Shown here one piece after another: positions 34,301 through 59,075 of a stretch of 64,000 nucleotides of DNA. Positions within the stretch are counted from its first letter, which is position 1, and every line of letters starts with the position of its first letter. The DNA comes from Blasia pusilla (taxonomy: Eukaryota). The position numbers were made by a program, and so were the translations under genes. The notes beneath the pieces were generated by a model. The model did not search any database. It saw nothing but the letters and a program-made list of their open reading frames with translations, and was not told the DNA's origin. The stretch covers positions 40,796,001-40,860,000 of the forward strand of contig CM114271.1 of the NCBI GenBank assembly GCA_050084515.1. Direction: 5' to 3'.

Positions 34301-34575
34301 CTCATCAAGCAAAGGAATCCTTCCTCTAACTCAGTCAAACTCGTACTCGTGATGGTGTTCATCAACTGCGTCTTTCTAGGAACCTCAGGAACCAATCTGA
34401 CGTCCGTCCATTTACCGCTAACCAAGACGCTCAACCTCAAATGTCTTTGCCTTAGTTCCACCTCATACGCATCCAAGAACATATTTCCCAAGACTCCATT
34501 GATTCCGTCCATCTCGCAATCTGTGAAATTTTCCTTCAACTCGAATACTCCACATCCCACAACTAACCCTAAAAC
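31366..34575 (-). pseudogene. Chromovirus (Ty3/gypsy) pol: protease tail, RT, RNase H, integrase, chromodomain; 5' truncated and frameshifted
   Basis: [84 protein letters not shown], and chromodomain LVKWKSHHVKEATW. Confidence 0.93.
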
Positions 34576-35249
34576 GGGGGCTGGTATTGAGGCAGGAGAG
34601 AGGGAGAGAGAAGAGGAAGAGAGGAGAGTCTCTCTTTAAAAAAAAAAGGGCCAAATCCGCCTCCTCTCTTCAAAAAAATTTTACATATTTGAAATTTTTT
34701 TTGCTTTCAAATTCATGAAATCTTTAGAAGAGAGTAGGTAGTGGTCCACATTCGGGCCTAAAGAAACCTCCTTTTTCCAAGGGGCGAAAAACAAGTAGAC
34801 ATCATAAGACCACTACAAACATTTTCCCATCACTCTCCATGTGAGCCTAAGTTTTTTCACGCTGTCTCGCCTCTGATGGCAATGTGCCTGGGCTATTTTT
34901 TTTTGGAGGACCATTGGCAAATAATGTGATCAGAAGTAGCAATCTCATCTCAATGAAAGGTTCAAATAAAGACCAACTTTGTGAAATGTGAACATAGAAG
35001 ACGATAATTGAACCAAAACATTGTTAGTTGTTTGGAATAAAGAGGAACTGATGTCCCTTCATTCAGATCCGAAATCTGAGAAACTGAGAAGCTGCACCCT
35101 TCCCAATCCGTCGGAGTTTTACATGTTGCAACTCTTGCAACCCATCGGAATCAGATGGCTTGCACCCTTTGCAAGCAAGCTCACCATAACAAAGGAAAGA
35201 TTTTGAGAAGTGATTCCATTCCACCCTGCACCCTCGAAGATCCAATTGG

Positions 35250-36380: not shown

Positions 36381-36434
36381 TAAATCCCTACTCCAAAACG
36401 CTGCAATCAAGCACGGTCCTTGAGTACTTTGAAC

Positions 36435-39400
36435 TCACTCTTCATCGTCTGAGAGCTCCTCCAGAATCACTGTCAGCCTTGCCCTCCCGATTGTTTGAAT
36501 TGTGGGAAGTGACGATGGTGTCACTACCAATGGTGGGTCTCGAACCGGAGCTGTCGGCTTCGAAGGAGAGTTGTACTAGCAACAGGCTAGTTGGAGGCCC
36601 CAATTAGCATGTCGTAATGTGCCTTTGCCTCTTTGCAAAGGTCAAACAATTCCTGCCTTCCCTCAAGGCAAAGAATGTTCCTGCCACTTTGCCAGGCGCC
36701 TCTGATACTCGCCCCCGAAAGGCCCACTAAGTCGAACACCAAGTCACCCGGCCTTGAGCAGAGCTCAATTAGCGTTTGCATCAGCACCGTCAACTTTTCC
36801 CTTCCTCCAAGTAAGGGGATACCATTTTCCATGTAAATTCCTGGGGAGGAAATGTATAAACTATCTAAGCTGTACCCATCAGAGCATGGATCCATTGGAT
36901 CGAGGATCTGAAACACTTGGAAGTTGTGCTCATGCCTTACAAAACAGTAGACAAAGGAGTGGTCCATCTGTTAAGAAGTAGGTTTGGAAAAAATGTCAAC
37001 AACAAGAAAGAGCTAATTTCAGTATGCAACAACAAGAAAGGTATACTATTAGAATGGTGACACAATGTGCAACTCGTTCCCAAAGAACTTTGCTTAACCC
37101 CAGAGAACTTAGTTATAGTCCTAATATTGGAGCAACCTGTTGGAGTCCAACGGGTTGTTTTACAAGTGTTAGTGATTTTTTTTGCCATTAGCAACCCGTC
37201 ACAAGGCGACAGGTTGCTAGCTTAGAGCAGCCCATGGTTGGCTAAGAGCAACCTGTTGATTCAGACGCGTTGCATCATTCTAGATACACAAAGAAAAGCA
37301 TAAGCACTTGCAACTCGTCGGGTTCCAACGGGTTGCATTCACCCAATGGAGACTTGCAGTAAATTTGCAACCCATCGCTTTCAGATGGATTGCACCACCG
37401 AAGTCTCCAGCTCAGAAAATCCGATGGGTTGCATGCAGAGATGCAACCCGTCGGAGCTAGAAAATATGGATATGGATTTAGAGGCCTTACCTGGATTTGA
37501 CTCGTCGCGGATCAGAGTGGGTACTCGTTCTTGATGACCCACGATTGCGTCGTCCTTCACTTCAGCGGCGTCTTGACGCACTGCAGGTTGAAGAGCTCGT
37601 CTTGGCTCCCTCCAATCAAAACCAAGAAACAGCCCTTGTCACTGAGATAAGCGTTTGCAAAGGAAAACATGAGTGCGATCTGGTCATAAGAAAGAGGGAC
37701 ATTCTAGTCTGGGACACTGTAGAACGGATGCTTGTCCCACAAGCGCAACCTCGAGGGCAAATCAGCGACAAGGAGATCCACCGCGACCTCCTCGACCTCC
37801 CCATGGACCGTCCAAGGAGCGTGCCCGTTTTGTTGAATCTTCCGTCCCAGCGTTGTCAATTTGTCGATGGTGGGTGTCGACGCTTGGGAACTGAAACTTT
37901 TCAGCTCATCCAAAAGATTCGTGCAGTGAATGATGACGCTTGTCCGGGTCGTTGTTGATCTATGTCTTCCCAAGGATGATGGAGTGTATTCCACATCCTG
38001 GTCTGCTTCCTGGGACAAACCTGGTGCCTCTCGCTTCCGCTTCTCCCAAGTCTGCGATCGACTTGTTGGGGTCTCTATTACCTCATACTCTGGTGGAGTG
38101 TTTTTTGCGGAGGACCTGATCCAATCCTCTCTTTCCACTTGCCCGGAAGATTCCGCCCCTTGCCTTGAATTCTCAGCCTCCTTTTGGGAAGACTCGGCCT
38201 CGGAATTCTTTGATCCCCTCGCCTTGGGTTTGAGACCCGCCATAGATTTTTCCTTGGCGGTGACGACCTTGGACACCAACTCCGTTGTCTCGATGGCTTG
38301 CTCCTCCGCATCTCCTTCGAAAAAGTCTTCAAGTTGCACAAAATTGGGGATGTCGTCCCTACCTGCGGCCACTACATCACTGAGCATGCGTAGATTTTTA
38401 TCGGTTATGTCCTCAGGATCGTTGAAGTCCAGCCAGATCGGGCAATTCTCCACCTCCCAGTCGGACATGCTTTGAGCCATCTCCATGTCGTACATGGAAA
38501 ATGTCTCTCCATTAGGCGGAGAAGCCCACAATTTGCAGGCTGCCGGTATTTTTTGCCACCTACTTGCATTCTTACAATGGACGAGGTACCTGATCACCAT
38601 GTGTTGGGCAACTCTTAGTCGACATGCATCGGCCGCCTGCTCCTGAAGATCTTGCTTTTTCTTTGCGAAATCCCTTTTCCTTCACCTCTATTTCTTCATC
38701 AAGGTCTGCCTCATGGAGGATGTGATCCTTGAACATCGTCCTGAAGCCTAGGTTTTTTATGGGCTTGTCCCGCATGTCATCCAGCCAAAGTTTAAAATCT
38801 TCAGCACTCTCTAGGTTTACTTCCTGCGGAACAACCTCTATTTTTTTCAGCTCTGCTTGGAGGCCCACGAGCATGGACTTCCCGAGAAGCCGCAACGCGT
38901 CCCAGAATGACCATTCACGGAGCCCGTGGGAGATCACTGGATCAGAGACACCTAGAGGATGCTGTACCACCCTCTTTTGGGCCTCTATGCCCTCGAGACT
39001 GATTTTCATTAGTCGGATTCTCCTAAATTCCGAAATTCCAGACAAGGCAAATCAATGGACACGTTCGAGAGATACTTTCTCCCCAATCCGACCGTGCGGA
39101 TCTTCATCCCTCTTCCGCTGGCGCTTGATTATCGCCTTCAGCTCCTTGTAGAAATCGGGGCCAAGTTCGGGGTTGAGAATGGCGATATAGCGCTGCATCT
39201 TGCTTGCAGTGTACTTCGTAGCTCGAGATACTACAGTTTGGATAAACTTAGCACGCTCAGACACAAACACTTTCTCCCTCCGCTCCAGCTCCAATGAAGC
39301 GCTCTTCTTGGCGGCCTGTATCTTCGACCAGCAAAGGATTGTCAGGGCTGCATCTTGGGAAATAAATGTATTTTCCCAAGTCTTTTTTTTTATTTGAGCC

Positions 39401-39584
39401 CCCTTCGCCAGCATCTCATTTACAAGGGCGTCGCCCAAGAACATGTGGTTTCCACTCTTGAACTGGGTCCACGCCATGAACTTGTGGTTTCCATCCCAGA
39501 TGAAGAAATACAGGTTCCGCATCCAACTCAATTCCGTCCCCTCAATCGCCCTTCTGAATTCATGATCTCTCATCCTCCAGAATG
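36435..39584 (-). pseudogene. Left-arm copy of the ParB-like + N6A/N4C methyltransferase-like gene (5' truncated, internal deletion, intron 37490-36968)
   Basis: FFIWDGNHKFMAW; VDLLVADLPS; REKLTVLMQTLIELCSRPGDLVFDLVGLSGASIRGAWQSGRNILCLE. Colinear with the right-arm gene. Confidence 0.75.
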
Positions 39585-39979
39585 GAGGTGCGGTAAGAGG
39601 AGAGGAAGAGAGGAGAGAGGAGAGAGGAAACTACCTTCAACCGAAATAGATACTTTTTTTTTAAGAGAGTTTCCGTTGGGTTGAAGAGAGGAAACTTTTT
39701 GTGTGAATTTTTTTGCACTTTTTTGTTCATTTATTAAGTAGTCCCACAGTTTTTTTTTCCTCTTCCATATTTTGGCAACCCCTCTGAGTTCGACGAGTTG
39801 CAAATTGCACAAAATTTAGAAAACTGAAAAATCAGTGGAATCATAATTGTGGAACCAATCACTTTTTCCATCCAAGGTCTGGAAAAAATCTGTCATTTTC
39901 CCCGGGCTGAATAGAGTTCAAGCTCAAAGTGAAGGTTCAGGAAAAATAAAAGTACAATCTAACACCTCATTTTGCATCC

Positions 39980-42900
39980 TCAAAGTGGTTTGTTTAAAAT
40001 ACTTCGCACTTCTTTAAGGGACAGAATTGGTTGGTGGATTCCTACTCCTACCTCCGACTCTCTTAAAACTACCAGCAACACATAGTACATGTGCTTACAA
40101 GGGAAATACCTTTTGCCACTTGTCTCTCTTTGGACAAAGTCATCACATGAACATGTGGGAAAGCAACAGATGTGCACCACATACATCCCTGTGACTCTTG
40201 AATTTACAGTGTTGTTCCTGACCCAATACATCCTTCCTATTCCATTGCCACTCAAGACATCTTTCGTGGCGATGATCTACATTTTTGCCTCTCGAGCTGA
40301 TGCAATTCGCTTTGCTCTCTCCATCGTTGGCCAACACATTCTGTTTCTCTTCACCCCATTTCTAGACTCAAACAGAAATAATGGATTGAGATCATCCACC
40401 TTCTCCGGGTACATGTTGACATCAATCTTGGGTTGAATACGAAATACGAAGGTCTCTGTAATGCGAACATGCTCCGAACTTCCCCCGTCTACGAGTCTGA
40501 AACCGGCACTTGTAAGATTGTCCACTTCGTCTTGAGTGTAGTTCGTACCTGCGGCGATGGGCCAAATCGTGGGGGTATTCCCCAGAGCTCCAATGGCAGC
40601 CGCATAAGACTTCCGGAAAGCGCAAGATTCATTTGGGCAGAAGAAGTACTTCAATTGATCCCCGGTCCTCGTGAAACGATCAAAGTTTTTGAGTCCCCAA
40701 AACCCAGGCAATGGTCGTCCAGTCCTTGTACAGTTCTTATTTAGGAAAGTGCCGCATGCTCTCCTAATGCCATCAGATCTTGCCCTGCAGGTGAGTCCGC
40801 GTCCTGGGTTACTCTGAGATATATGCCACCGTTTTAGGTTGCAATCCACCTCCATTACCGGAATCCCATATTGTTGAACCACCGTAGTGACAGGATGTTG
40901 CGAACTTCCAGAAACAGAGGGCTTTTGAAATAAAACATTCATTGATTTTGGAGAAGTTACTCCATCACGGATTTGGGATGGGTCCGGGGTCCCCGAATAC
41001 CTGGGCGGCGTAATTTCCTCATCCAAATCAATCACCGGATTCCTTCCTCGATGCTGCCTCTTCACCTGCCTGAAGTCAAGATACTTATCTGATCTCCAAG
41101 TCTCACGGGATCGCTCTACCACCATCTCAGATGGGGACGTCTTGAAACCTGCCCACGAATATCCCCACCAATGTTTACGTCTTGCTCGAGGGGAGTTCCA
41201 GCTACGCACCGGTTGAAGGCTTCCACATACATTTTTCATCACCAGATCTCACAGCCGCCCTGACATAGAGCTCGTAGATCGACGGCCCCCTTCCTTTTGT
41301 TATGCCTTTTGTGAGGAAGATATGGGATGCTGCAGACTGTAGCATTGCTCTTGCCTAGTCTTGTTGGCATGCCTCCACAAGTGAAATTCGTAGGCATGCT
41401 TGTGACGACCTCCACGAGGAATGAACACTTTCTGCTCCACTTGTGTTGGGACAGAGGGCATTTTCATGAACGTTCAATCCCTACAACGACGGCAATGTTA
41501 GAAGGGAACAAAAATAACTCAGCAGTCAAAGACATAAGCTACCTGTCGGAACCCAGACGGGTTGCAAGGCCGAGGCATCCCATGAACGACTCTACGACCC
41601 GTCGGGTCCCGACGCGTTGTAACCTTAAACCCACCTACTGCAACCCGTCGGAACCAGACGGGTTGCAAGGCCGAGGCATCCCATGAATGACTCTGCGATC
41701 CGTCGGGTCCCGACGGGTTGCACACTCGGGTTGCACCAAAAATTTGGATGCAACCCGTCGGTTTCCGTCGGGTTGCACACTCGGGCAACCCGTCGCATCC
41801 GACAGCTTGCTTGGTTTTTTCGATTTGAAATCCCTATAGTTCCCACGCTTCTCACCCTGAGCTACAACTTTACAAACAATTCTCAGCGTGAGCTTGACAA
41901 GACAAAATAGTGAACTCACCTACCGCATGAAGTTTCCCCATTGTCTCATACGTACAGTCCACCAACTCAACCAAGAGCACAACTCTTTGTACTTCCCCTC
42001 AATAGTTCTTCCTGGCATTCCATGGCCTGCTTCAAGGTTTTGTTGTCCTTGCAGCGTTGGAGTAGAGTGGCATGCTCTGTCCTCTTATTCTCCTTGATGC
42101 AAGATTTGGTGTACCGTGTCATAGACTGTTGCCAGTGGAAAGCATCCGACCTTTCCCTCTCCGGTTGAATCTCTCCACCCCATAACACTTCCCGGATAGC
42201 AATCCACCCAGGTTGTGCATTGTCTGCCATGAACACATAAATTTCCGGAGGTGGCCTTTTGTTTTCCTTCACCACCTCCAATAAGAGTAACCAGCACATC
42301 TTCAAACTGCCAACGTCTTCTGCCTTTACTTCACAGACAAATATAGTTTTGAGTCCCTTCTCCACATGGTCATAAACGTGAGCACCCATCGTCAACCATC
42401 CATTTAGCACTCTGGAGCAAATATCAAAGCTTACCCAGCTGCCATAAAGATCTTCCCCTTCCCTCATTCGATCTATAAGATCGAGGCCACTCGACGGACA
42501 TGTGGTTGACATTTTGAAGACATAGGCCCTGGATCCCTCGCCTCCTTGGCCCATGAACTGCCATCTCTGAATGAATGGAAATCTAGAGTTGGCCTTGATT
42601 CTGGCGATGGCATCCATTTCGGCCATCTTTCCATCCAGAACTCGTATTTGACGTAGCAAATTCCAGAAGCATTCAGGATGAGCGAGAAATGCGAGATTTT
42701 CCCATAGTTGTTTCTCCTCAGCCGCCGTGATCTCACCCTGTCCAGGGATTCCAAACAATTGTTCACAAATTTGTGATGTCGTTGTGAGCTTGATCACTCC
42801 GGGCTTTGAACCCGAAGAGTTTCTGTAGACCTTGTCAACTTTCTTCGCCACATCCTCCTTGATGTGTCTCTGAATTGCATCGCTCACAGGATGAGTGTGG

Positions 42901-43910
42901 GAGCCAACATGAACTTCCAGCCTTGTGTACTCTGACGTGGAGCCCAAGTCGTGGACAATGAAAAATATGTATGCAGGACACGCTCCAACGCAGAAGGGCG
43001 ATGCCTGACAATGAGGACATCGATGGCCTCCCGGCGGTATGGTGGCACCGACCTCGTATGGAGTTTCTGCATTCTTGGGGGGGAATTGCGACGTATTGAC
43101 TCGCCCGTTGCGCTCTAGATACGGGCATGCTGGACTTCTACACTCCAAGGCTCCCACGCATTGGCGGCGGGAGACAATCCAAGGACCATCTGGAATTGAA
43201 GCACTAGTCCGTTGAAGCCTGCACCATCGATGACAATCGACTTTTCGCCCATACCCTTTCAGCGCCCTCCATCTTTCTTTTGAGCAGGAGCAGCAAGTGG
43301 AGGCAACTCAAAAATGGAATTACCATCGTACGTGGGCGGCAACTCGTCATCAAGAATGTGCTTGAACATTTTCAAGGCCAGAGACAAAAGCAAACTATTT
43401 TGCCTGATACTCGCAAGAGGAACGAGTAGGCGGACAGAGGGCCCGGTTGGTGTCTGACAGATCCACTGAGGTTGATAACATCCGGAATCTCTTCAGGAAG
43501 AACAACATTGATACGAGCGTGTGAAGTTGGAGTGGAAGCCGGATCTGCAGAGCTTGGAGTTGCAAACGTAGAGCTCGGAGCACTAGGAAATTCTAGACCG
43601 TCTACTTGGGAAACAGACGAATTGGGCAAAAGGGGCCCGTAAACTCAGATTGACCATTTGCTAGAGGTAGGAGATTCCATACTTTACGGTCTGAGGTCAC
43701 TGGTTGGACGGTCTCACCTATTATGTCTTCCGTACCGTCCACCCTAACATCTTTGGATACAAAGATGGTTCCAATTTGGAGAAGAAATCGAACAGAGAGA
43801 AAATTTTCATCCACTGCTATGAAAGACTCTCGAGCTTGCGGTCGAATGATTTCTGATTGAGGAAGGGCCGCCAGATGACTGCCACAAGTGAGCTTAACAT
43901 AATTATCCAT
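39980..43910 (-). pseudogene. Mutator-like (MULE) DDE transposase with an N-terminal GCM-like Zn domain and a C-terminal SWIM finger; one intron (~41918-41482); several frameshifts and stops
   Basis: CVGALECRSPACPY...CPHC...C...HVGSHTH. Catalytic WVSFD, FMADNAQ...AFHWQQS, WLSWWTVR, PNTSGAESVHSSW. SWIM CSCDDF...CKHMYYV. Confidence 0.8.
41500..41810. repeat. Palindrome cluster in the transposase intron
   Basis: Multiple GCAACCCGTCGG-n-(T/C)CGACGGGTTGC variants, including a ~110-bp internal duplication. Confidence 0.85.
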
Positions 43911-43991
43911 TCCCAAAAATTTCGTACGGGAGGAGGGTGAGAATGAGAAAAAGAATGAGAATGAGAATGAGAATGAGAATGAGAATTTTTA

Positions 43992-43998
43992 ATTTATA
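43992..43998 (-). promoter_or_regulatory. TATA box of the transposase gene
   Basis: TATAAAT on the minus strand, followed by (TCTCAT)n and the ATG at 43910. Confidence 0.55.
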
Positions 43999-44204
43999 GT
44001 GAATAGGAAAACAGATACTTCTGACAGATTTTTACTGACAAGATGAATTCGGTAGGTGACATTGTCTGACACAATGGATCCAATTCTGTTGCAATGTGTT
44101 ATCGGATTTGGGAAGCAGAGACGTGGGTTGCGAAGCACACTTCATTTTGTTGGATCCTGTCGGAGTCCTGGTAACTCAACAATTAACCCAAGCTAAGCGA
44201 AGCC

Positions 44205-44767
44205 TACAACCCGTCGGCTTCGGACGGGTTGCACGCTTCTGCCTTCCCTTCAAACGCAAACATGGTCGAAGCTGGCAACCCGTCGCTCTCCGACGAGTTG
44301 CTCGGATATAGCTCCTTCTTGCCCGAAGATGCCGGAGGCGTGCAAACCGTCTGTTCCCGACGAGTTCCACGGGTGCCGCACCTATTTGCCCAAAGATGGC
44401 AAGGCGTGCAACCCATTGCCCTCCGACGGGTTGCGCAAGGGCCTCGCCTTGTGGTGCTTACATGAAGGAAGCGTGCAACTTGTCGGACTCCGACGAGTTG
44501 CGCGGGAAGCCCGCGTTGTTAACCCTTGACGAGGGAAGCGTGCAACCTAGCGGTCTCCGACGGATTGGGCGGGTACGTCCCGTTCTTGTCCAAAGACAGC
44601 GGAGGCGCGCAACATGTTGGTCTCCGACGGGTTGCGTGGGTACCTCGCGTTCTTGTCCAAAGACGGCGGAGGCGCTCAACCCGTCGGTCTCCGACGGATC
44701 GTTCGCGCACGTGGCGACGTACCCAGGACGGCGGAGGCGCGCAACCTCTCGGACTCCGATGGGTTGC
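44205..44767. repeat. Array of nine 27-bp palindromes at ~67-bp period in the divergent promoter
   Basis: Copies start near 44208, 44275, 44342, 44408, 44475, 44542, 44609, 44677 and 44741. Confidence 0.9.
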
Positions 44768-44857
44768 CATTTTTTCACGTCCGGACTTCCGTAACCTCCG
44801 GCACGTCGCCGTCGAAAGGACGACCGGACCCAAGGGTCAGCCCAACGGCTAGAAAAG

Positions 44858-44865
44858 TATAAATA
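44858..44865 (+). promoter_or_regulatory. TATA box of the ParB-MTase gene
   Basis: TATAAATA followed ~20-60 nt later by a CT-rich/TCA initiator-like region; ATG at 45125. Confidence 0.6.
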
Positions 44866-46224
44866 GGGCAGAAATTGCTCATTTCCGGTTTCTCATTTTG
44901 CGATCTCCATTCCTCTCTCTCCCGCGCAGCAGCTGATCAGATACCAAGGGGCGTTTCACACGGCGAGTCATCGCGAGTCGATACAAGGGAACGAGAGTGA
45001 GACGGTTCGACTGAACGATCACGAGACGATTCAAGCTACCCATCAAGGCGACTCATCTTGACATCAGCAAGGCGACTGATCAAGCGATTCATCGTGGACA
45101 TAGGTGGAGGCATTTCCGAAAAAAATGACGAGGAAAAAATCACAAGCAAACAAGTTTGGGAGCTTCACTCCGAAGTCCATTTGTACTCCTGCGTCAGCAT
45201 CTCCAGGGCCTCGTTCGGCAAATGAAATTAGGCAGCAAGAAATCAAGGAGCGGGAAAGCGAAGCGGAGATGCACAACCAGGAGCTTCTTGCGAGACGTGT
45301 TCAAGAGGCGCTTGATAGACAGAACGCAGAGGCTGAGACGTCGCAGGCCTTGAAGAAAAGGATCGCCGACGAAAAGAGAGAAAAGAAGCGTCTGGACGCG
45401 TCGGTGAGGAGAGCAGAATTGGCTAAAGCGATGAGGGAAAAAGCGATAGCCATTGATGACAGCCCTGCTTGTCCAACCGAAAGTGTTGAGATGCGGGAAA
45501 TGTCCCCGATGAAGTCCGGGGACACAATCAACATAGCGGAAACGCCAGAAGTTCAAATCACGGACGATGAGGTCATGAGGACCGCTAGCGTGGAGATGGT
45601 GGACATTGCCGAAGAAGCCGGAGAGCGGTCATTCTCGTCTCCAAGCACGGCAGAAGACATCAACCTCTATCGTATCGACGAGTTCCTAGTCGATTTTCCA
45701 GCTTTTGTCTCAGACAAGTTGGCTGGTCAAGAAACCGACCCAATTTTTGAGCGGGTAAGAGAGGATCTGGAATTTTTGAATTATGTGAATTGCAATTCAT
45801 TGGGAATTCAATGTAGCTTATTGATCAGTCCGACGAGGACATTGCAAAGCTTAAACAATCGGCAGAAACAGCATCCTACGTCGATAGTTTTCCTCCCTTA
45901 TATGTTCAGCCTTACGACGAGCATGGAACCCAAGCCCTGGTTACGGAGGAGGACTTGGAAAAGCTCCACACATTCTGGAGGATGAGAGACCACGATTTTA
46001 GAAGGCAAGCAGAGGGCACGGAATTCAGCTGGATGAGGAATCTGTATTTCTTCATCAGGGATGGAAATCACAGGTTCATGGCGTGGACCAAGTTTGCAGA
46101 GGAGCAGCCCAACTCCTTGGAGCCACATTTTTGCGTGAAGGCAGTGGTCCTTCATCCATTCCCTCATCACATGGCGACGGTGGAGATGGCAATGCATGCC
46201 ATGAACACGTGAGTATCTTCTTGC

Positions 46225-46980
46225 TGCAAACCGTCGGACTCCGACAAGTTGTTTGGGTCGGTAGTGTTGTTGGGATGCTTTTGGCCAAACGCAACTCGTC
46301 GGACTCCGACAAGTCGCTCGATTGATGAATGGCTTACGTTTTTTTTTGCCGAAAGCAACTCGTCGGACTCCGAGTTGCTCGACTCGACGCTTTTTCAGGA
46401 TGTTTCTTGAAGAATGCAACTCGTCGGACTCTGACGAGTTGTTCGACTGACCACAGGTTTAATACGTTTTTGACCCAAAGCAACCCGTCGGAGTCCGACG
46501 GGTTGCTCGACTCGCCGCCTTTTCAGGATGTTTTTTGAAGAAAGCAACTCGTCGGACTCCGACTAGTTGTTCGACTGACCGCAAGTTCAGTATGTTTTTT
46601 GCCCAAAGCAACCTGTCGGAGTCCGACGGGTTGCTTGACTCGAAATTGTTTTTGGCCGAAATCAACTCGTCCGAGTCCGACAGGTTGCATTCGGAAGTTG
46701 GTTTAGCAAATTTCGCGTCAAATTGCAAGTTTCCATTCAATTGCGCAACCTGTCGGACTTTGACGGGTTGCTATGTTCACGTTAGTATGTTCAATTCCAC
46801 AACCCGTCGGAGTCCGACGGGTTGAAACCAAGAATTAGCAAATCTGAATGCAATCCGTCGGACTCCGACGGGTTGCATCATTTAGCTCGTTGCTAGAATC
46901 CGACTTTGAGCTGTGACGACCCGTCGGAGTTCAACGGGTTGCAGGAACCCATGTAACTTACAAATTTTCTGACGGGTTGA
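46225..46980. repeat. Palindrome array (~12 copies, ~64-bp period at the 5' end) in intron 1
   Basis: Perfect copy GCAACCCGTCGGAGTCCGACGGGTTGC at 46480-46506. Spacers alternate A/B. Confidence 0.9.
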
Positions 46981-49099
46981 GTTTGGATGTGCAGGATTGT
47001 ATCGGAGGGTAATGTCACCCACCACTGGATCCAAGATTGCGATCGGGTGAAGAAGGTGCTTACGATGCACCCGGGAGAGTACAAGGGGTTCTTGGGCGAC
47101 GCCCTGGTAAATCAGATGCTTGCAAAGGGTGCTCAGATAAAAAAGAAAACTTGGGCAAATAAGTTTATTTCCCAAGATGCAGCCGTAACCATCCTTTGCT
47201 GGTCGAAGATACAGGCCGCGAAGAAGAGCGCTGCATTGGAGCTTGAGCGGAGGGAGAAAGTATCTAGGTCTGAGCACGCGAAATTCATCCAAGCTGCAGT
47301 ATTTGCAGCCACAAAATACACGGCGAGCAAGATGCAGCGATACATCAGCATTCTCAACCTCGAACTTGGTCCAGAGTTTTACAAGGAGCTGAAGGCGATT
47401 ATCAAGCGCCAGCGGAAAAGGGATGAAGATCCGCAAGGTCGGATTGGGGAGAAAGTGTCCTCGGATCACGTGCATCGGTTTGCGGTGTCTGGCATAAGAG
47501 AGTTTAGGAGGATCCGACTGATAAAAATCAGTCTCGAGGGCAGAGAGGCCCAGAAGAGGGCGGCACACCATCCTCCGGGTGTGTCCGATCCAATGATCTC
47601 CCACTGGCTACGCGAATGGTCGTTCTGGGACGCGTTGCTATGGTTATCGGAAGTCCGTCGGACGGTCTGCAAGCAGAGCTCAAAAGATTAGAGCCCATTC
47701 CGGATGAAGCAAACCTGGAAAGTTCTGTAGATTTCGAGGTTTGGCTCGAGGACATCCAGGACAAGCCAATAAAAAACCCAGGATTCAAGACAATGTTCAA
47801 GGTTTGCGTCCTACCTCAAGCAGAGCTTGACGAAGAAATCGAGGGGAACAAACGGGATCAAGCAAAGAAGAAGCGAGATCTACAGGAGCAGACGGCCGAT
47901 TCAGTTCGAGTAAAAGTTGCCCAACGGATGGTCTTCAGGTACCTCGTCCAATGTAAGAATGCAGGTTCCTGGGGAAAATTATCGGCAGCCTTGAAATTGT
48001 GGGCTTCGCCGCCTGATGGAGAGACATTCTCCATGTACGACATGGAGATGGGGCAGCACATGTCTGATTGGGAGGTGGAGAATTGCCCCATTTGGCTTGA
48101 CTTCAACGATCCTGAAGACATCACCGATAAGGATTTACGAGTGCTTCATGATGCAGTGGCCTCAGGACAAGACGACATCCCCAATTTTGTGCAGCCTGAA
48201 GACTTCTTCGGAGGAGGAGATGCGGAAGAGCAAGCCCACGAGACAGCTAAGTTGGCTTCCAAGGTCCGCACAGCCAAAGAAAAATCCACAGCGGGTCTCA
48301 AAGGCAAGGCGAGGGGAGGGAAAAATTCCAAGGCCGAGTCTTCCCAAAGAGAGGCTGAAGATTCAAGGCCAGAGGCGGAATCGTTCGGGCGAGCGGAGAG
48401 AGAGGGTCGGACCAGGTCCTCGGCGAAAAAAAACCCCACCAGAGTCTGAGGTCATAGAGACCCCGACAAGCCGTCCGCAGACTCGGGAGAAGCGGAAGCG
48501 AGAGGTGCCAGGGTTGTCACAAGGAGAATACAGTCCATCATCCTTGGGAAGACATAGACAAACAACGACCCGGACAAGCGTCCTCCTTCAGTTCACTCCT
48601 TTACTGGATGAGCTGAAAAGCTTCAGTTCTCAAGCGTCGACACCAGCCATTGATAAATTGACAACGCTGGGACGGAAGCTCCAACGAAATGGGCACGCTG
48701 CCTGGACGGTGATCTCTTGATCGCTGATCTGCCCTCGAGGTTGCGACTATGGGGCGAGAATCGTCGGACGGGGTACCTGAGTGGAATGTGCCGCTCTCTT
48801 ATGACCAAATCGCGCTATTGTTCTCCTTTGCAGACGCATATCTAAGTGATAGGGGCTGCTTCTTGGTGTTGACTGGAGGGAGCGAGGACGAGCTCTTCAA
48901 CCTCCAGTACGTCAAGAGGTCGCTAAAGTGGAGGACGACGCAATTGTGGATCATAAAAAATGAGTACCCACTCCGATCCGCGACGAGTCAGATTCGGGTA
49001 AGGCTCAATTCCTGTAGTATAAGATCAAATATATTTTCAAATTTGGGTAAGGCTCAATGAGTGTTAATTTCAAATAGTATATCTCCGTTGTTTTTTTCC

Positions 49100-49330
49100 G
49101 TAAGCAACCCGTCGGAAGGCGACGGGTTGCTGGCTTAGAGCAGCCCATGCTCAGGGAACCCGACGGGTTGCAGTTGCTTCTGGTTTTTCCCTGTGTTTCC
49201 GGAAAGCTGCAACCCGTCGGAAAGCGACGGGTTGCTCACGCGATGGGTTGCTGCTCTAGGCCAGCAACCCATCGCCTTCCGACGGGTTGCTCACGGACAA
49301 AACAACCCGTCGGACTCTGACAGGTTGATC
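49100..49330. repeat. Palindrome cluster in intron 2 (counterpart at ~37130-37460 in the left arm)
   Basis: GCAACCCGTCGGAAGGCGACGGGTTGC and variants. Confidence 0.85.
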
Positions 49331-51778
49331 CAAAGTTAGTAATTGAAAAAGTTCTCTAGGGTCAAACCGACTTCTTTGGTGACGTGTTGCACATTATGCC
49401 AAGTTGCTGACATTGTTTCCAACGTGCTTCTTTACAGATGGACCACTCCTACGAATACTGCTTCGTTCGGCCCGAGCACAATTTCCAGGTGTTCAAGATC
49501 CAGAATCCTGTGGATCCATGCTTAGATGGGTACAGCTTAGATAGTTTGTACAATTCCCCCCCGGGAATTTACATGCAAGATAGTACCCCACTTCTGGGAG
49601 GAAGGGAAAAATCGCCAGCCCTCATGCAAACGCTCATCGAGCTCTGCTCAAGGCTGGGTGACTTGGTGTTCGACTTAGTGGGACTTTCAGGGGCAAGTAT
49701 CAAAGGCGCCTGGCAGAGTGGCAGGAACATTCTCTGCCTCGAGGGAAGGCATGAACTGTTTGACCTTTGCAAGGAGGCAAAGGCAGAATACGAAAGGCTC
49801 ATTGGGGCGTACAACTCTCCACCGAAGCCGAGAGCTCCGGTTCCAGACCCACCATTGGTAGTGACTCCATCGTCACTTCCAACGATTCCGAAAATCGAGA
49901 GGGCAAGGCCGAAAGTAATTTTGCAAGAGCTCTCGGACGATGACGAGTGAGTTCAAAGAACTCAAGGACCCAGCTTGACTGAAGCGTTTGAGTAGGGAGT
50001 TATTTGATGATGAGGCAAAAGATTTCATAGAATAGATCAAATGTACAGTTCCGAGCTTTTTTTGGATGATATAAAGGAGATGATTTTTTCGAACGATGGT
50101 GGTGCTTGTAAACATTTGCTGAACATTTTTTATGTCTTTTCGAATGTGATCGTCTATGTACTCCGCGGACTTCTATTTTGCAACCCGTCGGATTTCTCCA
50201 GCTTGCAACTTTTCACTTTTTGACGACAACACCTTTTTACCACTTCCAGACAACCTGTCGGATTCCGACATGTTTCCTGATCGGATTCGATCGGTTTCTC
50301 GATCGGACTCTTCCCTGTTGGTCCAACTTAAGAGGCGATCGGAGGGCTTCTTCCTTGGCACCTTCCCTCAACTCGTAAAGGCGGCGAGGCTTCTTTTCTT
50401 CTCTCGACGTGTTGGATTCCTACTACCTATGCGATTGCCATAATGGTATTACCAAGGACGGAGCACATATTGATCTTTGGATGGGTGTCACATTGCGGAG
50501 CGCACAAGGTATCTTTGCCGAGGAAGGCGGTGGGACTCAAATCAGGTTACATGGGACCGTTTTGGCGCACCTAGGGGGGGGGGCAAGGCTCTCGAATTCG
50601 CCAACATCTTTTATCCCCGTCTACAATCGGCCAGAGGAGCCACTTGTATCCCAGGACATTCCTTTTGTACTGTCACCGAGGAGAGTTAGCAGTAAATTTG
50701 TAGATGACGAGGCTGAAGAAATCATAGACTAGGTCAAATGTACATTTCCGAGGTTCCTTCGGAGGTAATAAAGGACGAGATTTTTTCAACCCATAATGGT
50801 GTTTGTAAAAGTTTGCTGGAATATTTTGTTGGACTTGTGGATTGTGTTCTTTTAGCTACTCAAAATTACAATTTTGCAACCCGTATGATTCTGACGGGTT
50901 GCAACTTTTTGCTTTTTGCCCACTGCAACTTTTTAACCATTTCCACGATTCCGATAGGTTGACTGCTTGAGTGATCGGACTCTTTCCCTGTGAGACTAAC
51001 TTCTGACGCATTGTGGCGGGCTTCTTAACTTTTGGCTTGTTCCCCTACATTTGTCAAACCAGTTGTAGGCTTCTTTTCTTGTCTAAGATGTGCAAGATTC
51101 CTACTACCTGTCGGATTGCCACCCAACCTGTTAGATTGTCGTGGGTGCAGGGTGGAAGAAAATCACTTCTAAAAATCTTTCCTTTCTTATGGTGAGCTTT
51201 CTTACGGGTTGGGAGGGGTGCAGCTTCTCGGTTTCTCAGCTTTAGGATCTGAATGAAGGGACATCAGTTCCTCTTTACTCCAGACAGCTAACAATCTTTT
51301 GGTTCAATTATCCTCTCGTGTGTTCACATTTCACAAAGTTGGTCTTGAGCATACACCATTCATAACCAACAGAAAGTTGGTTATGGGGCAATTCAGGGGA
51401 GGCCATGATGCAGGCAACAATCCCTGCAAAAAGAGAGGTCGGCATCCGGGTGGTCCTCCAACAAAAATACCCATGGGCACTGCTTTTTGTAGACCGAGAC
51501 AGGTAATGTTAAGAAACTTAGGCTCACATGGAGAGTGATGGAAAAATGTTTGTAGTGGTCTTATGATGTCTACTTTTTTTTCGCCCCCAGGAAAAAGGAG
51601 GTTTTTTTAGGGCCAAATGTGGACCACTACCTACTCTCTTCTAAAGATTTCCTGAATTTGAAAGCAAACAAAAATTTCAAATATATCATAAAGTTTTGAA
51701 GAGAGGAGACGAATTTGGCCCTTTTTTTTTAAGAGAGACTCTCCTCTCTTACTCTCTCCTAATAGAATATCAGCCCCC

Positions 51779-53248
51779 ATCTCACACGGCCAAAACTCAA
51801 CCTGAATATTTTGGGTCATGGAGTAGTTTAAGGCTTGAGTGGGCGAGACAAGTTCCATGGGAAGGTGTAGGTCTTGGATTAGTTCAATTGGACCTTAAGG
51901 ACACTTCTCCACCGGATTCCCAACTATGGGAGCCGAATACAATGGACGAACTTGCTCAACTCACACTTGGAGATGCAGTCGGAACTTCAATCATTTGGCC
52001 GGAGCTGAATATGAAGAAGCTAGTTCATTAGGATCTGTGGATTCTATGATTTTCAAGATTTTTAAAAGTTTCACGATGATTCCATCAAATCATTTGTTTG
52101 TAGTTTGGCTTCCATATGCTCTTGGTTCCTACTTGCAGCTTGTTCAGATGTAAACGCTATGATTATGCAATACAATCAATCATCCATATTTTGGTTTCAT
52201 CAATTAGAGAATGGTTTGATTGTGATGTATCTATAGTTTTCAGTATTCATTGTAATTGGCATGTACCCAAGAATCACTTGCTTGATATATGTCCCTCTTC
52301 TAGAGCTTCAGATTGAGATTTTGTCTATCCTCACCATTGTATATGCTGCTTGTATTCACACATTACTCCTTGCTGGATCTGAGAGAATCTCAATTTATGT
52401 TACGAGGATAATGTTACTTAGATGGCCATCACATAGTTACCAAAGTAACTCCTCTGATTTAACAATCACTAGGAGGAGCAATGACAAACTGTGAACACAA
52501 TTCATGATCTAGTAATAAAAAAAAACTGATAAAGTAGGATGAATCACTAATACAATATGTAAAATAACTCAGACCGCCAAAATATTATGTAATGGTAAAA
52601 AAAAGGACTAATCTTGTCAGAATAATAACTCATACAGTAAACACAATGACTCAAATGGTTAGGAAACATGACTCATACACTCATGAATGACTCGAGATAA
52701 ATGACTCAACCATCAATATAATGTCTTAGTTAGTGTAAAATATGACTATACTACATTTAAGGTGACTAAAAGAGTCGTAACTGCGAACCCATCTAGTCAT
52801 AAATAATGACTCATTTAGTCATAGGAAATGACTATGTATACGGTTGGTACGTATGACTCACTCATTTCAACCACCTGTCACTCAATCATTCGTTCATATC
52901 ATTACATATGTCATCATCTAATTGAGCCTAAAATATCCAGCGTTCCCAAATATGACACGTGGCAATACAATAGTTGATGCTTATTTTGCCACGTCATTTC
53001 TTATTGCCATATCATATGCCAACTTGGCACTATGACGTGTCATTCACACGTGCCATCTTAGTCATATATTAATGATTCAGTATCTAATGACTTGAGTCAT
53101 TTACCAATCTAGTAGTGAGAGTCATATCCTATCTATGACTTGGTTTATATGACTCTAATGGTTATGAGTCATCGTGAGTCATTTACCGTGAATAATGACT
53201 CAACCTAGTCATTTATTAGAGTCATATAATACGCAATTTGTTCTAGTG
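51779..53248 (+). mobile_element. 3' end of a CACTA element: TnpA-like C-terminus, subterminal ATGACT/AGTCAT repeats, terminal ...TTCTAGTG
   Basis: TLGDAVGTSIIWP motif (ORF ends 52031). Many direct and inverted ATGACT(C) copies at 52640-53230. Ends TAGTG at 53248. Confidence 0.7.
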
Positions 53249-55329
53249 CTAGTTCTGCCTGTGCACCTTTTGAGACCTTCAAAAAAGGTGACGAGCTCCG
53301 TTTGGATGCATTATCGTCGTACTCTACATTAGGCTTCCACTATCAATAAAGTGTGTATGTCGTCATTCAGGCTTATGGTTAATAATCTGTCCACGTCGCT
53401 ATAATCCAAACTCAATTTGCCTTTGTGGAGAGTTGCAATCGTTTACGGTGTTTATGCTCAACAAAAGTTCTCGTTAATTGCACTTACTATATGAGGCTAA
53501 CCACTTAAATGAATGTGATTGAAATTCTAGTTAGCACGACCACTAAGTGCAGTCGTAGTACAACAGTAAGGTCTGTGCGTATCAGGTATGTGTAGTTGGC
53601 CTTAATTATTTATGCTCATGTGTATGGTACAACCCTCCTTGTGCTTGCATGTCTGCCTTTGTGCTTGTGCGTATGCACTTGTGCTCGCTATTGAGGCTTT
53701 GCAAGTATGTCATGCTTCATGTTGGAGTAATAGTTTAAGCTATGATTGGGAGTCACTTCTTTTTGTTGTATGCAGCAATACTGTAGATATGCATGGAGCA
53801 TTTCCTTTATGTGCAGTATTGTTGTAAGTAAGATTTGGGTGTGCCTCCCATAGATATGAATTTATGAAAAAGACTTAGATGCATGATCCATTAAGGTCCC
53901 TATTCCCATATAGTTCGATGGATTTCAGCCATATTTTTGTGTTTCCCTACTGATAGGAGCGGTAAGCCCTAAATGTGGATATAACCAAACTTGTTGTAGA
54001 GACCAAAACATGCAGATCTTTGTCTTCTTATTTTCATATTGTTTCATTCGTGACTGCATCCTCATGTAGCCAAGTTCACTAGTTTCAACCTATGTTGCAC
54101 ATTATTTATCAATTCTATTGTACCAAAGCACATATCAGTGAGATACATAGACGTGTCCCTGGACCTTCTCTGTTGATGCTGTTAGTTTCTAGTTATTCGT
54201 AAGTTGTTAATAATGCTCACCAATAGTGCCTAGATCCATAGTGTTGGTATAATGCGATGACAATAGGTAGTGTACGTGTGTTTTCACAATTCAACTTTTA
54301 AGCCATTCATTTCGATATGAGGTGAGTTTATTATTTTTCCTTTACGTTCCATATAAGGGGAAGCCACTACCAATCCATGAACTCTATGCAATATCTTTAC
54401 ATACCTATCATGCTGCGATGATCTGTGATGAAGCACTAGTAGCAAATGAGGCAAGAACACTATTATCGGTAGGGAGCGATCACTTAGTACACAATGCAAG
54501 CACTAGGGTGAGTACTGTATTGGTACTCAATAGCAAACATAGTGATAACACCCTCCGCTTCTTATTTCCACCATTGTCGAACATCTACTTATAGTGATCT
54601 ATATACTAACATATGAGTGTAGCTAGTATCCTACGCCGCCTACATGTTCATCAAATATGATGGAATAGGTTTAGAGCGCATGCCGTTTACTAGTGCAATA
54701 AAATTTCATATTCCTTACATTTGAAAAGGTATGTAGGTGGTTGTGCAAAGCCCAACTAGTGTTTCAGAACTTGATGATGTAAACACACAAGGGGCAAACC
54801 TCCTACACTCAGCTTGCGACTAGTAGTCACTTGGTTGATTGGAAAAAAGTAGATTCCACATGACAAATAATCAGAAATTTGTGTTGAACTACCAACTCCT
54901 CTACAACCCATTTTTTGCGCCCCTTACTTAAACTTGCTATAAGGCACAGGTGTGAATCAACACTTATGATGCCTAAAGTGTCGCTAATGGAGCAAAATTA
55001 GCCGAGTTCAAATCATACTACACACCATGGTAAAGAACTGGACCACACTGACTTCCTTACATCGACCCTTATTCATTCCTTGCAACAATAGTTTGCACAA
55101 CCATATATTTGAGCGCCAAACATGGCTAGAACACAAAGGACAGTGAGACCCAGATGTTGACTTCTTCTTAAACAGAGTGCGGCTAAATCAGTGTAGGGGC
55201 CATGCGAGAACCCGAGTAAACACCTTAAGTAAGTTTCCGACACTATGTGTTTGTGTAGTATGGCCTGGGATAGAGCTCTTACTCAAGGGTTGGCAAACCT
55301 AATGCTCTTCATTTATTAGAGATATGAAG

Positions 55330-58300
55330 TGTTGTGGGTACTTATGCTTGTGGGGGGGGTATTTTATAGCACCAGTCACTTGAGAATATATATTAAAAAA
55401 TCAGGGATATATCCTCAATATGCCTTATGTAATGGTTACATAACCGAATATATTGTACCGTCTATCGAGAAATTTTACGTATGCAATCAGTGCATAGGAA
55501 ACAACCCAAAAATTGCACACAATGTGTACATGACGCCAACATATATTTGAGATTGTTGGGTGTTAACCCTTTATACATGCAATTTTTATCTCTTGTAGAC
55601 TTGAGCCTCGGGATTGAAACCAAATACAATGGCTTTCATGGGTTTTTTCAGGTTGAGCCCTTGCTGGATTGTCCGTTTATTGCTTGGGGACTTGCGGACT
55701 CAACCGTGACAAATTAAGTCTTCTTGTACTGCAAGGTCAGGAATGTTCTATTAGTGAACTTACAAATCAATGAACTATATTCGTAGTATGTCCTGCTTAT
55801 TGAGCTACCTGATCCAACATGTAGGTTTGTGGTTCTACCATCTTCATCTGTTGAAACTATTTTGAAGGCATCCCAAGAGAAGGGGAAGATGACACATAGT
55901 ATGCGTTTGGACCCTTATAGTGTTGAGCTCAATGTGTTGCAAGACGTACAGTACTCACTACCCGTAAAGAGAAGACATGCATATGACATATTTCATAGTG
56001 GCAGCGTGTTTCTTAGAGAGCATACACACGTTCGCGAGCAATTTCTTAGTGACAAAGACGGTATATCGCCAAACTCAAAGTTAACTATTGAGACTGGAAT
56101 ATTTTTATTCTTGTTTCCCTACCTTAAGGGATATTCCATTGGTCGATACCCCTTTTTTTATAACCTTTGGAGCCGAGTGAGAAAAATATTAAGTATGTTT
56201 ACACTTTACAAGACATACTTGCTTCTTATGCATTAGTTTTGAGAGTCTATTACGCTAGCTAGCTTCACGAACTCGCTCATGCATCTTAAATAGATAACTA
56301 GATCAGCTAAAAGTGAAGTATCCAGAACTTACCGAACAAGAATTGTATTCCTATTTATCTAGAATATTGTGAGTGTACAGATCCCAAGAACCCCTAGCTG
56401 GCATCGCTGCCATCTTAGGGACCTTAAAGCCATGGTCTAGGCCCCATTTCTTCTTGACCCTTACATTTGATGAAGTATCTTATACAAGGAGGTCTGAAAT
56501 ATCCAATATTGAGGCACTAGTGAAGAAGATGAACCCATCTATTACATGGCACGATGCACTTGTTGAGTGTGTTGTATTTTTCATACTAGACTGAAAGCTT
56601 TCTTTTATTACTATATCCTAGGCGGACGGTGCATACTAGGAAGTATGCAGAATAACCTCGTTAGATGTGAGTTGCAAGGTCGGGGTAGCTTGCACTTGCA
56701 CATTATACTATGGGTAAACAAGCACGACATTGATCGGGTCACAAGCAAAATATGTTGCTATATTTCCTTAGTGGAATAGTGTAGTCCCGAGCAAACAGCC
56801 TATTCTAGCATGACTGCCATGCTGCAAAAATACGTAACTTCAAAACAATTACATATATGTAGGCCAGATGGCTGTATCACCAAAGCAACCAGAGATCACC
56901 CACCATATTTCTACATAGGTTTCCCCGCTCCTACCAACATGCAAGTAGAACGTGCCATAGATCCAAAGACTGTGAAATTGAACTATTACATACCTAGTGA
57001 ATGTCACATGAACGTTATACCACATCACCATGCTATCTTGCTCTTGTGGGGTGCCCATATGAATTTACAATGTGTTATGAATGTGCAATGGTCTTTTTAT
57101 CTATTGAAATATGCCTTGAAATGTGGACCCCAAGGTGCCCTCAATATCACAATGGAATGTGATAAGAACCTTGGGCTTGAGGGCTTGGACCATACAAGAT
57201 TTGCGGCTAATATCTGGACTAGTGCTCAATAGGTTGGTTTCTTCCAATGATCCCAATTATCACAAGGGTGTTCAATATATTGATTTCAGCCCACCGTATC
57301 AACGAACTACATTTATATATTATACAAAAATGCAATAATTGTATGCATACATCCCACCACACTCGATTGCCATTGCCTAGAATGTTTTTCTAATTTGACA
57401 TTTGTACAGTTCTGGACTCACCATGAGGTTTCTAAGCTTACCACAAGAACCACCAACAACTTTTTTGGCCTTGATTTAATAGGAAATTATGTTTATACAA
57501 CATCGAGGCTTGTTTGATTTATTGAATATCATCCCTTATACCAGTGGAACGAGTTCTTTAATACATTACTACTAAGAAAAATGTGCTTCAGATGTGAGTC
57601 ACAAGTGTTGTCTATCTCATCGACACCTGGACCTATCTACACGAGTGCATCCATAGAAAAATATTCAAAAGTGCATTGTGTATTGTAAATGAAATCGAAC
57701 ATCATACCACCGTCAGCCTCTAGAGCCAAGTCCATGCTAGTGAAATCATTGCATCCCACCTCTATTTTGACTTACATGTTGATTCATTTCCGGACCATGT
57801 TGATCAACCTTTTGTCTTACCCACTCCTATCCGACGAGAAAGTCAAGCAGATTCCCAACCAACCTTGCCATACACTCATTAAATCTATAACAAACAGATC
57901 TGTATCACAAGATGAAAGCCATGACAAGTGGACTCTTCATGCTAACTGGCCCACCGGGTTGTGGAAAGACCTTTTTTTATTAACTTAATGCCAAAATTCT
58001 TGTCGTTCAATTGCATTCCTACACTCTTGGTTGCAACTACAGGAATCGCGGATGTACGCTAGCATCCCACTGCCACAACTGTGCACTCAACATTTGGTAT
58101 TCTGGTAAAGGGAGATCTTCCTTGCAACAAACAACTTCAAATCAGTATATGAATCTACGAGACTCCAAGGTCATCATTCTAGACGAATGCTCTATGCTTA
58201 GACCTTGCCTACTACAAATAATTGCTTTAAGGTTATTCCGGGTCGCCTTGTCGTCGAACATGGACCCTTTCTAAAAAAGAATTGTCATTTTATTAGGTGA

Positions 58301-59075
58301 TCTCTGCCACCTACCTCCTATATGTCGCCACAGCAGTCGCCCTTTTCTCTTTTTTTCCCTTCTTCCACATATCTTCTTCACCATTTTACAACAGTATGAA
58401 AAAATTACAGCCTGCATGCACCAATGAGGCACGTTAGTGACCTTGAATTCCTTACATTTATGTCACACATAAAAAGAGAAAGTCCTACCCAGGACCACAT
58501 AGAAAATTACCTTGGTAGTTGCATTGTAGATGAGGATGTTGCTATAGATTATATAGATTATTGTACTCGAATAATTTGTACACACTATGTCGATGTGCAA
58601 GTGTTCAATCGTGTTGCCCTTTGCATACTATTTGGTATAGTTGAAATCTTTCCAGTGCATTTAACAACAGATGCTCTTGGTGACATGTATTTCAGTGATT
58701 GGATATCAAAAAATCAGTTTTGTGAGCTTCAATTTCTAGGAATAGGGTGTAGTGTCTTGCTTACATCAAACATCGACATGAAAAACCAGACAGCAAACGA
58801 TGCATTGGGCACGGTTGTAGATTGCATTTATAAACAAAAAGACCTAGTTGGTATCTTAGTTAGCCAAGTTATCAAGGTAACAAGAACGAACTTTGCTACG
58901 TTGAGGCATGGGCCTAACTGGAAATATCATAAGCGCACTTTCCCACTTATGTTGGGCTATGCTATGACTGGCCATAAGAGTCAGGGTCTGACAGTAAAAG
59001 GCAAGTGTTTGCTTAACATCAAGTCTGCCTTTGCCATAGGACTTGTGTTTATCATGTTGTCTCGTGTGTAGAGTA
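55330..59075 (+). pseudogene. Helitron RepHel (HUH Rep + PIF1-like SF1 helicase), heavily disrupted
   Basis: Rep motifs PHFFLTLTFDE, RCELQGRGSLHLHIILW, YLLKYALK. Helicase motifs LTGPPGCGKT (~57945), VIILDECSML, LLGDLCHLPPI, FPLMLGYAMTGHKSQGLT, IMLSRV. Confidence 0.9.

Follow-up and report, generated by a model that had tools for sequence, protein, structure and literature searches.

A 27-bp palindrome marks the non-coding DNA of a decayed Mutator-like element in Blasia pusilla

Introduction

Among plant DNA transposons, the best-known case of sequence-specific anti-silencing is that of the VANDAL elements of dicots and their VANC proteins. VANC21 was reported to bind a 9-bp motif in the introns and in the intergenic and terminal non-coding regions of VANDAL21, where the motif accumulates by tandem repeat formation and the arrays vary in unit number among copies (PMC5735166); VANDALs were described as having degenerate terminal repeats (PMC10398659), and VANC as dicot-specific and derived from MAIN (PMC13547354). 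Spm TnpA and the AtMu1 transposase were reported to be sequence-specific activators, and the transposase of a Mutator-like element (MULE) alone to be able to bind and activate its own family (10.64898/2026.08.24.746577). MpDN4MT1 of Marchantia and N4CMT of bdelloid rotifers are described as host genes with an intact SPPY motif whose products write N4-methylcytosine (4mC) (10.1101/2021.02.12.428880, PMC8885841), the rotifer enzyme recognising a motif in a tandem repeat, and DIRS1 retrotransposons as carriers of an inactive N6A-methyltransferase domain (PMC4738411). Here, we describe a stretch of 64,000 nucleotides from Blasia pusilla (GCA_050084515.1, contig CM114271.1, positions 40,796,001 to 40,860,000, forward strand), below called the window, in which all positions are counted. 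It holds a decayed Mutator-like element with a transposase gene, an accessory gene for a methyltransferase-like protein and many copies of one long palindrome. A full-text search of the literature, which left most subscription papers and supplements outside so that a prior mention is possible, found no description of a Mutator-like element with an N6/N4-methyltransferase-like gene or of this palindrome.

Results

Distribution of the palindrome

A repeat finder delimited a repeat family spanning 35.1-50.9 kb of the window, whose unit is a 27-bp palindrome consisting of two 12-bp arms and a variable centre of three nucleotides (nt). With the perfect copy at 46480-46506 as seed and up to 6 mismatches allowed over the 24 arm positions, 40 copies were detected within 34575-51779, the region of the element and a truncated second copy of it, all of them from 35137 to 50902. 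The same scan gave no copy in the 46.8 kb of the window outside this region and none in any of 100 Markov resamplings. The copies are arranged in the following clusters:

35137-36207: 3' region of the second copy, with four palindromes
36968-37490, minus strand: intron 2 of the second copy, with 4-5 palindromes and half-sites
39775-39801: single palindrome near the left end of the element, 3' of the transposase gene
41481-41919, minus strand: transposase intron (CT..AC on the forward strand), with 4-6 palindromes (41538-41811)
44206-44767: array of nine palindromes with a period of 65-69 bp in the divergent promoter region
46209-46994, plus strand: intron 1 of the accessory gene, filled nearly end to end by palindromes (11 full copies, one with an internal deletion at 46355, and a half-site at 46969)
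48998-49437, plus strand: intron 2 of the accessory gene, with four full palindromes and two half-sites (49104-49328)
50180-50902: three palindromes (50180, 50250, 50876) in the 3' non-coding region

The original prediction, made from the letters of the window alone, had named a motif scan as a check on its claim that every intron of the element is a container for the palindrome. The four intron clusters that it listed are all present at their places. Its estimate of about 12 copies in intron 1 was fair, and the alternating A/B spacers that it described there are real but confined to 46343-46643, where a 128-bp period runs through 2.4 copies. The intron of the left arm, which had been counted as a fourth one, is the counterpart of intron 2 in the second copy, leaving three distinct introns. 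All introns do hold palindromes, but not exclusively: 23 of the 40 copies are intronic (11 in intron 1 and four each in intron 2, the left intron and the transposase intron), whereas 17 lie elsewhere (nine in the divergent promoter region and eight in 3' or terminal DNA). Since 17 of the 40 copies are found outside introns, the palindrome marks non-coding DNA and not introns as such.

The expected near-absence from exons was confirmed. In 9,701 bp of exons, the outer limits of which are estimates, the scan detected no full site and a position weight matrix (PWM) no half-site. This matrix was built from the scan's own matches, so that only its zeros are informative; its counts for the left intron and the transposase intron were 5 and 6, respectively. 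Under uniform placement, the chance of finding none of 40 copies in exons is 4e-15, a value that is overstated as it treats tandem copies as independent. Palindromes occur in every non-coding compartment, i.e. the three introns, the divergent promoter and both ends, and no stretch of the element longer than about 2.4 kb is without a cluster.

An independent mini-element or self-amplifying quasi-palindrome, piling up wherever it is tolerated and having no function for the transposon, would account for one palindrome unit being found in unrelated spacers, and selection on the proteins alone would explain its absence from exons. We nevertheless regard this as decidedly improbable, because the repeat-rich flank of 46.8 kb contains neither full nor half-sites as opposed to 40 copies in 7.5 kb of non-coding DNA of the element, and because the arrays occupy corresponding positions in the two copies and in expressed relatives. 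Within the window, the refuting case named in the original prediction, an independent mini-element dispersed through the genome, thus finds no support. Exact scans for the palindrome in metagenome, viral and GTDB collections gave no match, which says little since these contain little plant DNA.

The centre measures 3 nt in 40 of the 43 PWM sites, and 14 different centre sequences occur among the 40 strict copies. Each consensus arm contains CCGAC/GTCGG, and CCGAC is the core of the DRE/CRT element. That the sites recruit a host transcription factor is highly improbable all the same: the sites of such factors are short and would need neither symmetric arms of 12 bp nor a fixed 3-nt centre, and within the arms it is CAA and T, not the CCGAC core, that vary least.

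Architecture of the element and its second copy

The region bearing the palindromes was divided as follows:

39583-51779: decayed but full-length Mutator-like element carrying two divergent genes; its left end is approximate
34575-39582, minus strand: second, inverted, 5'-truncated copy of the right half ("left arm"), without the part corresponding to about 46095-47087 including intron 1

The element measures about 12.2 kb. Its right end was placed at 51779, behind which 16 RNA reads diverge, and a degenerate similarity of about 40 bp was found between 39583-39630 and the right end. In blastn alignments, 34969-39442 matched 51346-47088 at 77% identity and 39461-39584 matched 46094-45971 at 85%; by parts, the second copy and the right half agree at 83% in exon 2, 75% in the intron and 85% in exon 3. 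The deletion in the second copy takes intron 1 plus exon sequence, and the copy stops at a sequence resembling the right terminus. These data are read as a second, truncated copy adjoining a full element. A single element with inverted arms of 5 kb was considered and set aside as the less probable reading, given that the two copies differ at 37% of synonymous sites and that the left arm stops at the terminus-like sequence; no target duplication joins the outer ends either.

Mutator elements and MULEs generate target-site duplications of 9-11 bp. No convincing duplication was found for either pairing of ends, which, in an old copy with rearranged surroundings, weakens but does not overturn the assignment to this group.

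A tandem duplication of about 690-700 bp was observed in the 3' region of both copies (49978-50130 versus 50675-50827, and 35282-35691 versus 35970-36378) and includes a degenerate repeat of the last codons of the accessory gene. Expressed relatives skip from 49959 or 49989 to 50452 (37 and 26 reads, respectively).

Transcription and splicing

Three RNA-seq runs carrying the same species label and one contig set were aligned to 39400-52000 at 80% likeness. The aligned reads numbered 569, 753 and 625 out of 10.1, 12.0 and 11.1 million, respectively. Since only 1, 9 and 3 of them were at least 99% alike to the window copy, the signal comes from other members of the family and the window copy is probably silent. 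Both genes are transcribed in sense and divergently by family members, if the first-mate strand is read by the usual convention for stranded libraries.

All four introns (the left-arm one included) have GT..AG ends and the reading frames join across them. Intron 1 was joined in 6 reads (the content between the joined ends being flagged as not known) and the transposase intron in 16 reads, in both cases from all three runs. Splicing of the palindrome-bearing introns is thus borne out by family reads for these two, but not for intron 2, for which no joint was listed in the three runs and where the depth upstream is just 1-3; it was placed by its GT..AG ends, an open phase-0 join and an identical position in both copies. 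An Introner-like origin of the introns was ruled out on sequence, as the palindromes are internal and the intron ends unrelated. Relatives vary in the unit number of the arrays: nine RNA reads skip 46533-46605, and contigs contain skips within the promoter array and within intron 1.

Three further features of the family transcripts were noted. The methyltransferase-like exon is covered most deeply (49504-49924, sense depth 27-35), for which 3' bias or truncated copies are possible reasons. A transcribed derivative lacks 1150 bp of the transposase gene (40659-41810; 23 reads from two runs, ends not GT..AG). Finally, 11 reads over all three runs link 44472 in the promoter array and, on the opposite strand, 49515 in exon 3, which points to a rearranged member of the family.

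Duplex DNA site or RNA hairpin

The arms are 78-80% identical between the clusters of the promoter, intron 1 and the transposase intron, as compared to 33-41% for the spacers (48% for random 39-mers, which were not length-matched). Likewise, a comparison of intron 2 between the two copies gave agreement at 90 of 108 positions within the motif, versus 219 of 307 elsewhere. Among the 23 intronic copies, changes preserving G-U pairs numbered 17 for the transcribed and 15 for the other strand, i.e. there is no sense bias. Because the arms are kept across unrelated spacers, the length of the centre is fixed and a bias for the RNA strand is lacking, these patterns favour a putative double-stranded DNA site for a dimer over an RNA hairpin.

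The original prediction had also expected that the introns form multi-hairpin RNA. They indeed fold strongly: intron 1 reaches -352.6 kcal/mol with a z of -16.3 against shuffles, the sense reads of relatives cover it at a depth of 7-16 in 46557-46977, and a slight excess of compensatory changes was found (see Discussion). The arrays might thus act as RNA, either by regulating splicing or by giving rise to small RNAs or decoys for the silencing machinery. We hold this to be very improbable, since folding of the opposite strand is almost as strong (z -15.2), the G-U changes are balanced, no match was obtained in Rfam, and nine of the 17 copies outside introns lie in the weakly covered promoter region. 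As far as folding and G-U tests go, the intron hairpins are therefore a by-product.

The accessory gene

The right-hand gene consists of three exons:

45104-46208, plus strand: exon 1, frameshifted, start approximate, with a DGNHR motif at 46060-46074
46995-48997, plus strand: exon 2, frameshifted, with a degenerate methyltransferase motif IV (DLPS) at 48726-48737
49438-49950, plus strand: exon 3, S-adenosylmethionine (SAM)-binding half of a beta-class N6/N4 methyltransferase-like domain, with a degenerate motif I at about 49672-49695

Since the ratio of nonsynonymous to synonymous changes (dN/dS) between the two window copies is 0.22 over 642 codons, the accessory protein was under purifying selection. 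Exon 3 resembles PF01555 with an E-value of 0.002, a match that does not reach the cut-off, and a PHROG DNA methyltransferase with 6e-5; its ESM Atlas value is 0.93. A methyltransferase profile matched at 1e-15, but was made from loci found with exon 3 as the query. In an alignment with proteins of the moss Ceratodon and the prokaryotic profile, the order of motifs is that of the beta class, with the catalytic motif IV located N-terminally of the SAM-binding motif I.

The motifs themselves are degenerate. All 61 prokaryotic relatives retained in the profile, which had been picked for carrying motif IV, have it as D/S-x-P-Y/F (46 of them as DPPY), in contrast to DLPS in the two window copies and DAPE in moss. 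None of the aligned plant-type sequences keeps the FxGxG loop, in place of which the window copies have DLVGLSGA and the moss proteins DWSA(N/S)TGA. In the rotifer enzyme, replacement of S and Y of SPPY was reported to abolish activity (PMC8885841). Based on the degeneration of motif IV and the FxGxG loop, the domain is probably not an active methylase. By the same token, we consider it rather unlikely that the accessory protein is an active writer of 4mC or N6-methyladenine (6mA) that marks the palindromes with a bacterial-type modification and thereby blocks silencing by 5-methylcytosine (5mC), even though the beta-class order, the similarity to PF01555, the purifying selection and the existence of eukaryotic 4mC writers of the same class, as described for Marchantia and bdelloid rotifers, would fit such an enzyme.

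A HMMER search of 1.84 billion representatives gave six matches, two of which are genuine, namely a protein of Ceratodon purpureus and a 147-residue fragment; P0001, P0002, P0004 and P0005 were dropped as repeat artefacts. C. purpureus has at least four relatives (P0003, P0007, P0008 and P0009) with the same degenerate domain, which are annotated as "hypothetical proteins" without Pfam domains; the genes bear the locus tags M758_9G084500, 3G218200, 1G310400 and 6G158200. Their spread over four chromosomes, together with the 90-100% identity of three of the four over the domain, suggests a mobile family, probably one that has gone unrecognised. A word-indexed search with exon 3 gave no homolog (weak evidence). 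By alignment, exon 3 retrieved loci from metagenomes (36) and viruses (60) that share 30-52% identity with its C-terminal part; none of these convincingly matched the transposase or the middle and N-terminal pieces of the accessory protein, so that they yielded no second element.

For the N-terminal part, exon 1 matched DUF1015 at E-values of 0.016-0.023 and a PHROG ParB-like family at 0.4. Of two profiles, the one built from 11 ParB proteins gave 0.9 bits on exon 1, while shuffles reached up to 5.1; the one built from 6 DUF1015 proteins gave 6.7, a score that 2 of 1000 shuffles surpassed, with a match restricted to the DGxHR motif. No ParB relative of the accessory protein was found by tblastn, and nothing relevant in the PDB. 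By eye, we noted a GxxRxxA pattern as in the CTP-binding domain of ParB, but the ParB reading is not established. AlphaFold models were of low confidence (pLDDT of 39 for exon 1 and 28 for a Ceratodon relative). The domains DUF1985 and DUF287 gave no Pfam match at E<=1, either in six open reading frame (ORF) pieces from the gene in the right copy or in one from the left copy.

The transposase gene

The left-hand gene has two exons:

41920-43900, minus strand: exon 1, frameshifted, start approximate, with a Cys/His domain and the first two acidic catalytic motifs (by eye)
40011-41480, minus strand: exon 2, broken, with the putative catalytic Glu just past the junction and a candidate SWIM finger at about 40070-40162

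In the ESM Atlas, the first match of exon 1 had a value of 0.96 with 187 shared features and belonged to a Streptophyta cluster, 61% of the members of which carry PF10551 (MULE). The main frame had no Pfam match in hmmscan, so that the MULE assignment is not a match at a curated threshold; D, D and E motifs were read by eye across the RNA-supported junction. Together, these features identify a predicted DDE transposase domain of MULE type. The SWIM finger matched PF04434 at an E-value of 0.002 and 18.0 bits, under the cut-off of 19.6. A search of viral contigs with the transposase gave no locus, and a word-indexed search no homolog (weak evidence).

At the N-terminus, a Cys..(Cys4 insert)..Cys..HxH pattern was seen by eye that is WRKY-GCM1-like with a Zn-ribbon insert, a fold described in PMC1702500. 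The core of the palindrome half-site, ACCCGTC, loosely resembles GCCCGCAT, the reported site of GCM1 (PMC9894182). Together with putative terminal repeats of just about 40 bp, this could mean that the palindromes are transposase binding sites for end pairing or autoregulation which offset the short, degenerate repeats, with neither anti-silencing nor the accessory protein being involved. We judge this unlikely: the arrays are densest in the middle of the element (promoter and intron 1), at a distance of 4-7 kb from the ends, even the outermost sites lie about 190 and 880 bp inward of the termini, and no GCM domain was matched in Pfam or the PDB.

Surroundings of the element

To the left, decayed pol fragments of Gypsy type on the minus strand (31366-34575) are cut off at 34575 by the end of the second copy; a continuation was not seen right of 51779. 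The end of a short ORF at 51780-52031 (…LTLGDAVGTSIIWP…) is of a kind typical of accessory proteins of CACTA elements and MULEs, and has no Pfam match. Further to the right, an AT-rich stretch (52480-53250) contains many TGACTC/GAGTCA words and a 22-bp tandem repeat and is possibly the motif-rich end of another transposon. Fragments at 56780-59071 and 27111-27888 were assigned by eye, presumably to a Helitron Rep/helicase and a CACTA transposase, respectively, the latter beside Gypsy pieces. A low-complexity, coding-like region at 1105-2559 comprises a 72-bp tandem repeat (1579-1844) and shows a strong strand skew.

Discussion

We think it somewhat probable that the palindrome is a double-stranded DNA site for a dimeric, element-encoded protein that keeps the element transcribable against silencing. 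Such a protein would dock on the palindromes in introns, promoter and ends and hold these regions open for transcription, as VANC does on VANDAL and TnpA on Spm; the introns would allow sites to increase in number within genes by tandem duplication while leaving the proteins unbroken. The first candidate for binder and effector would be the accessory protein with its conserved, probably catalytically dead amino-methyltransferase fold. The Cys/His domain of the transposase would be a close second, as a MULE transposase alone was reported to activate its own family (10.64898/2026.08.24.746577), and both proteins may act together. This proposal is supported by the confinement of all 40 copies to the non-coding DNA of the element and its second copy and by the 3-nt centre, as expected for a dimer of fixed geometry. 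The better conservation of arms than of spacers, the lack of a sense bias in G-U changes, the varying unit number among relatives, the purifying selection on the accessory gene and the sense transcription of both genes also speak for it.

Several results weigh against it. No DNA-binding domain was identified in the accessory protein, for which the ParB profile was negative and the models were unusable. Two-sided compensatory changes amounted to 12 versus 6.5 in the shuffle (p 0.013, with tandem copies not being independent), and such an excess fits a hairpin or cruciform, too. Moreover, 73 of 123 departures from the consensus are C>T or G>A; as the site is rich in CG, the palindromes of the window copy were probably methylated in the past rather than protected.

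More speculatively, and with considerable doubt, a Mutator lineage of seed-free plants may have taken up a bacterial amino-methyltransferase, the catalytic site of which decayed and which was reused as a sequence-specific anti-silencing factor. This factor, possibly with a ParB/Srx-like domain at its N-terminus, would dock on the long palindromes in introns and promoter. If true, VANC-like self-protection would have arisen independently a second time, from prokaryotic parts, and the combination of the same cis layout with an accessory protein that is unrelated and of bacterial type would mean that the strategy evolved convergently. The locus suggests that N6/N4-methyltransferase domains had a reservoir in the transposons of early land plants, which bears on the origin of plant 4mC writers. 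It would also offer a directly testable pair of protein and site, with one long, well-defined palindrome and two candidate binders. If the protein were a sequence-specific guide for demethylation, epigenome editing would gain a highly specific handle in the 27-bp site.

Among described systems, Spm TnpA and AtMu1 share with the mechanism proposed here the binding of an element-encoded protein to repeated cis sites, by which cognate copies are activated; AtMu1, as reported, binds at terminal repeats and needs no accessory gene, whereas the sites described here are internal and intronic. MpDN4MT1 and N4CMT are likewise cases of a bacterial-type, permuted N6_N4_Mtase domain in a eukaryote, but the domain of the Blasia element is transposon-borne and lacks the SPPY motif. 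DIRS1 offers a parallel for a transposon-borne methyltransferase domain that is retained despite catalytic substitutions; according to its description, this is a PCIF1-derived group-2 domain within a retroelement polyprotein, in contrast to the beta-class domain encoded here by a separate gene of a DNA transposon.

The likeness to VANDAL elements, already proposed in the original prediction, extends to several levels. As described for VANDAL21/VANC21 and VANDAL6/VANC6 of Arabidopsis (PMC5735166, PMC10398659), a Mutator-like element is combined with an accessory gene and has degenerate terminal repeats, which are putative in the Blasia element; coding regions are free of motif arrays, which occupy introns, terminal non-coding DNA and the region upstream of the transposase; and the arrays stem from tandem duplication and vary among copies. 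The likeness ends at the site and the protein. The site is a 27-bp palindrome instead of the asymmetric word of 8-9 bp reported for VANDALs, and the accessory protein has an amino-methyltransferase-like domain in place of DUF1985/DUF287 and its nearest relatives in a moss, unlike VANC with its described restriction to dicots (PMC13547354). By its sequence, the element thus combines a VANDAL-like cis layout with a long palindromic site and a methyltransferase-like passenger, and its accessory protein is not a member of the VANC family.

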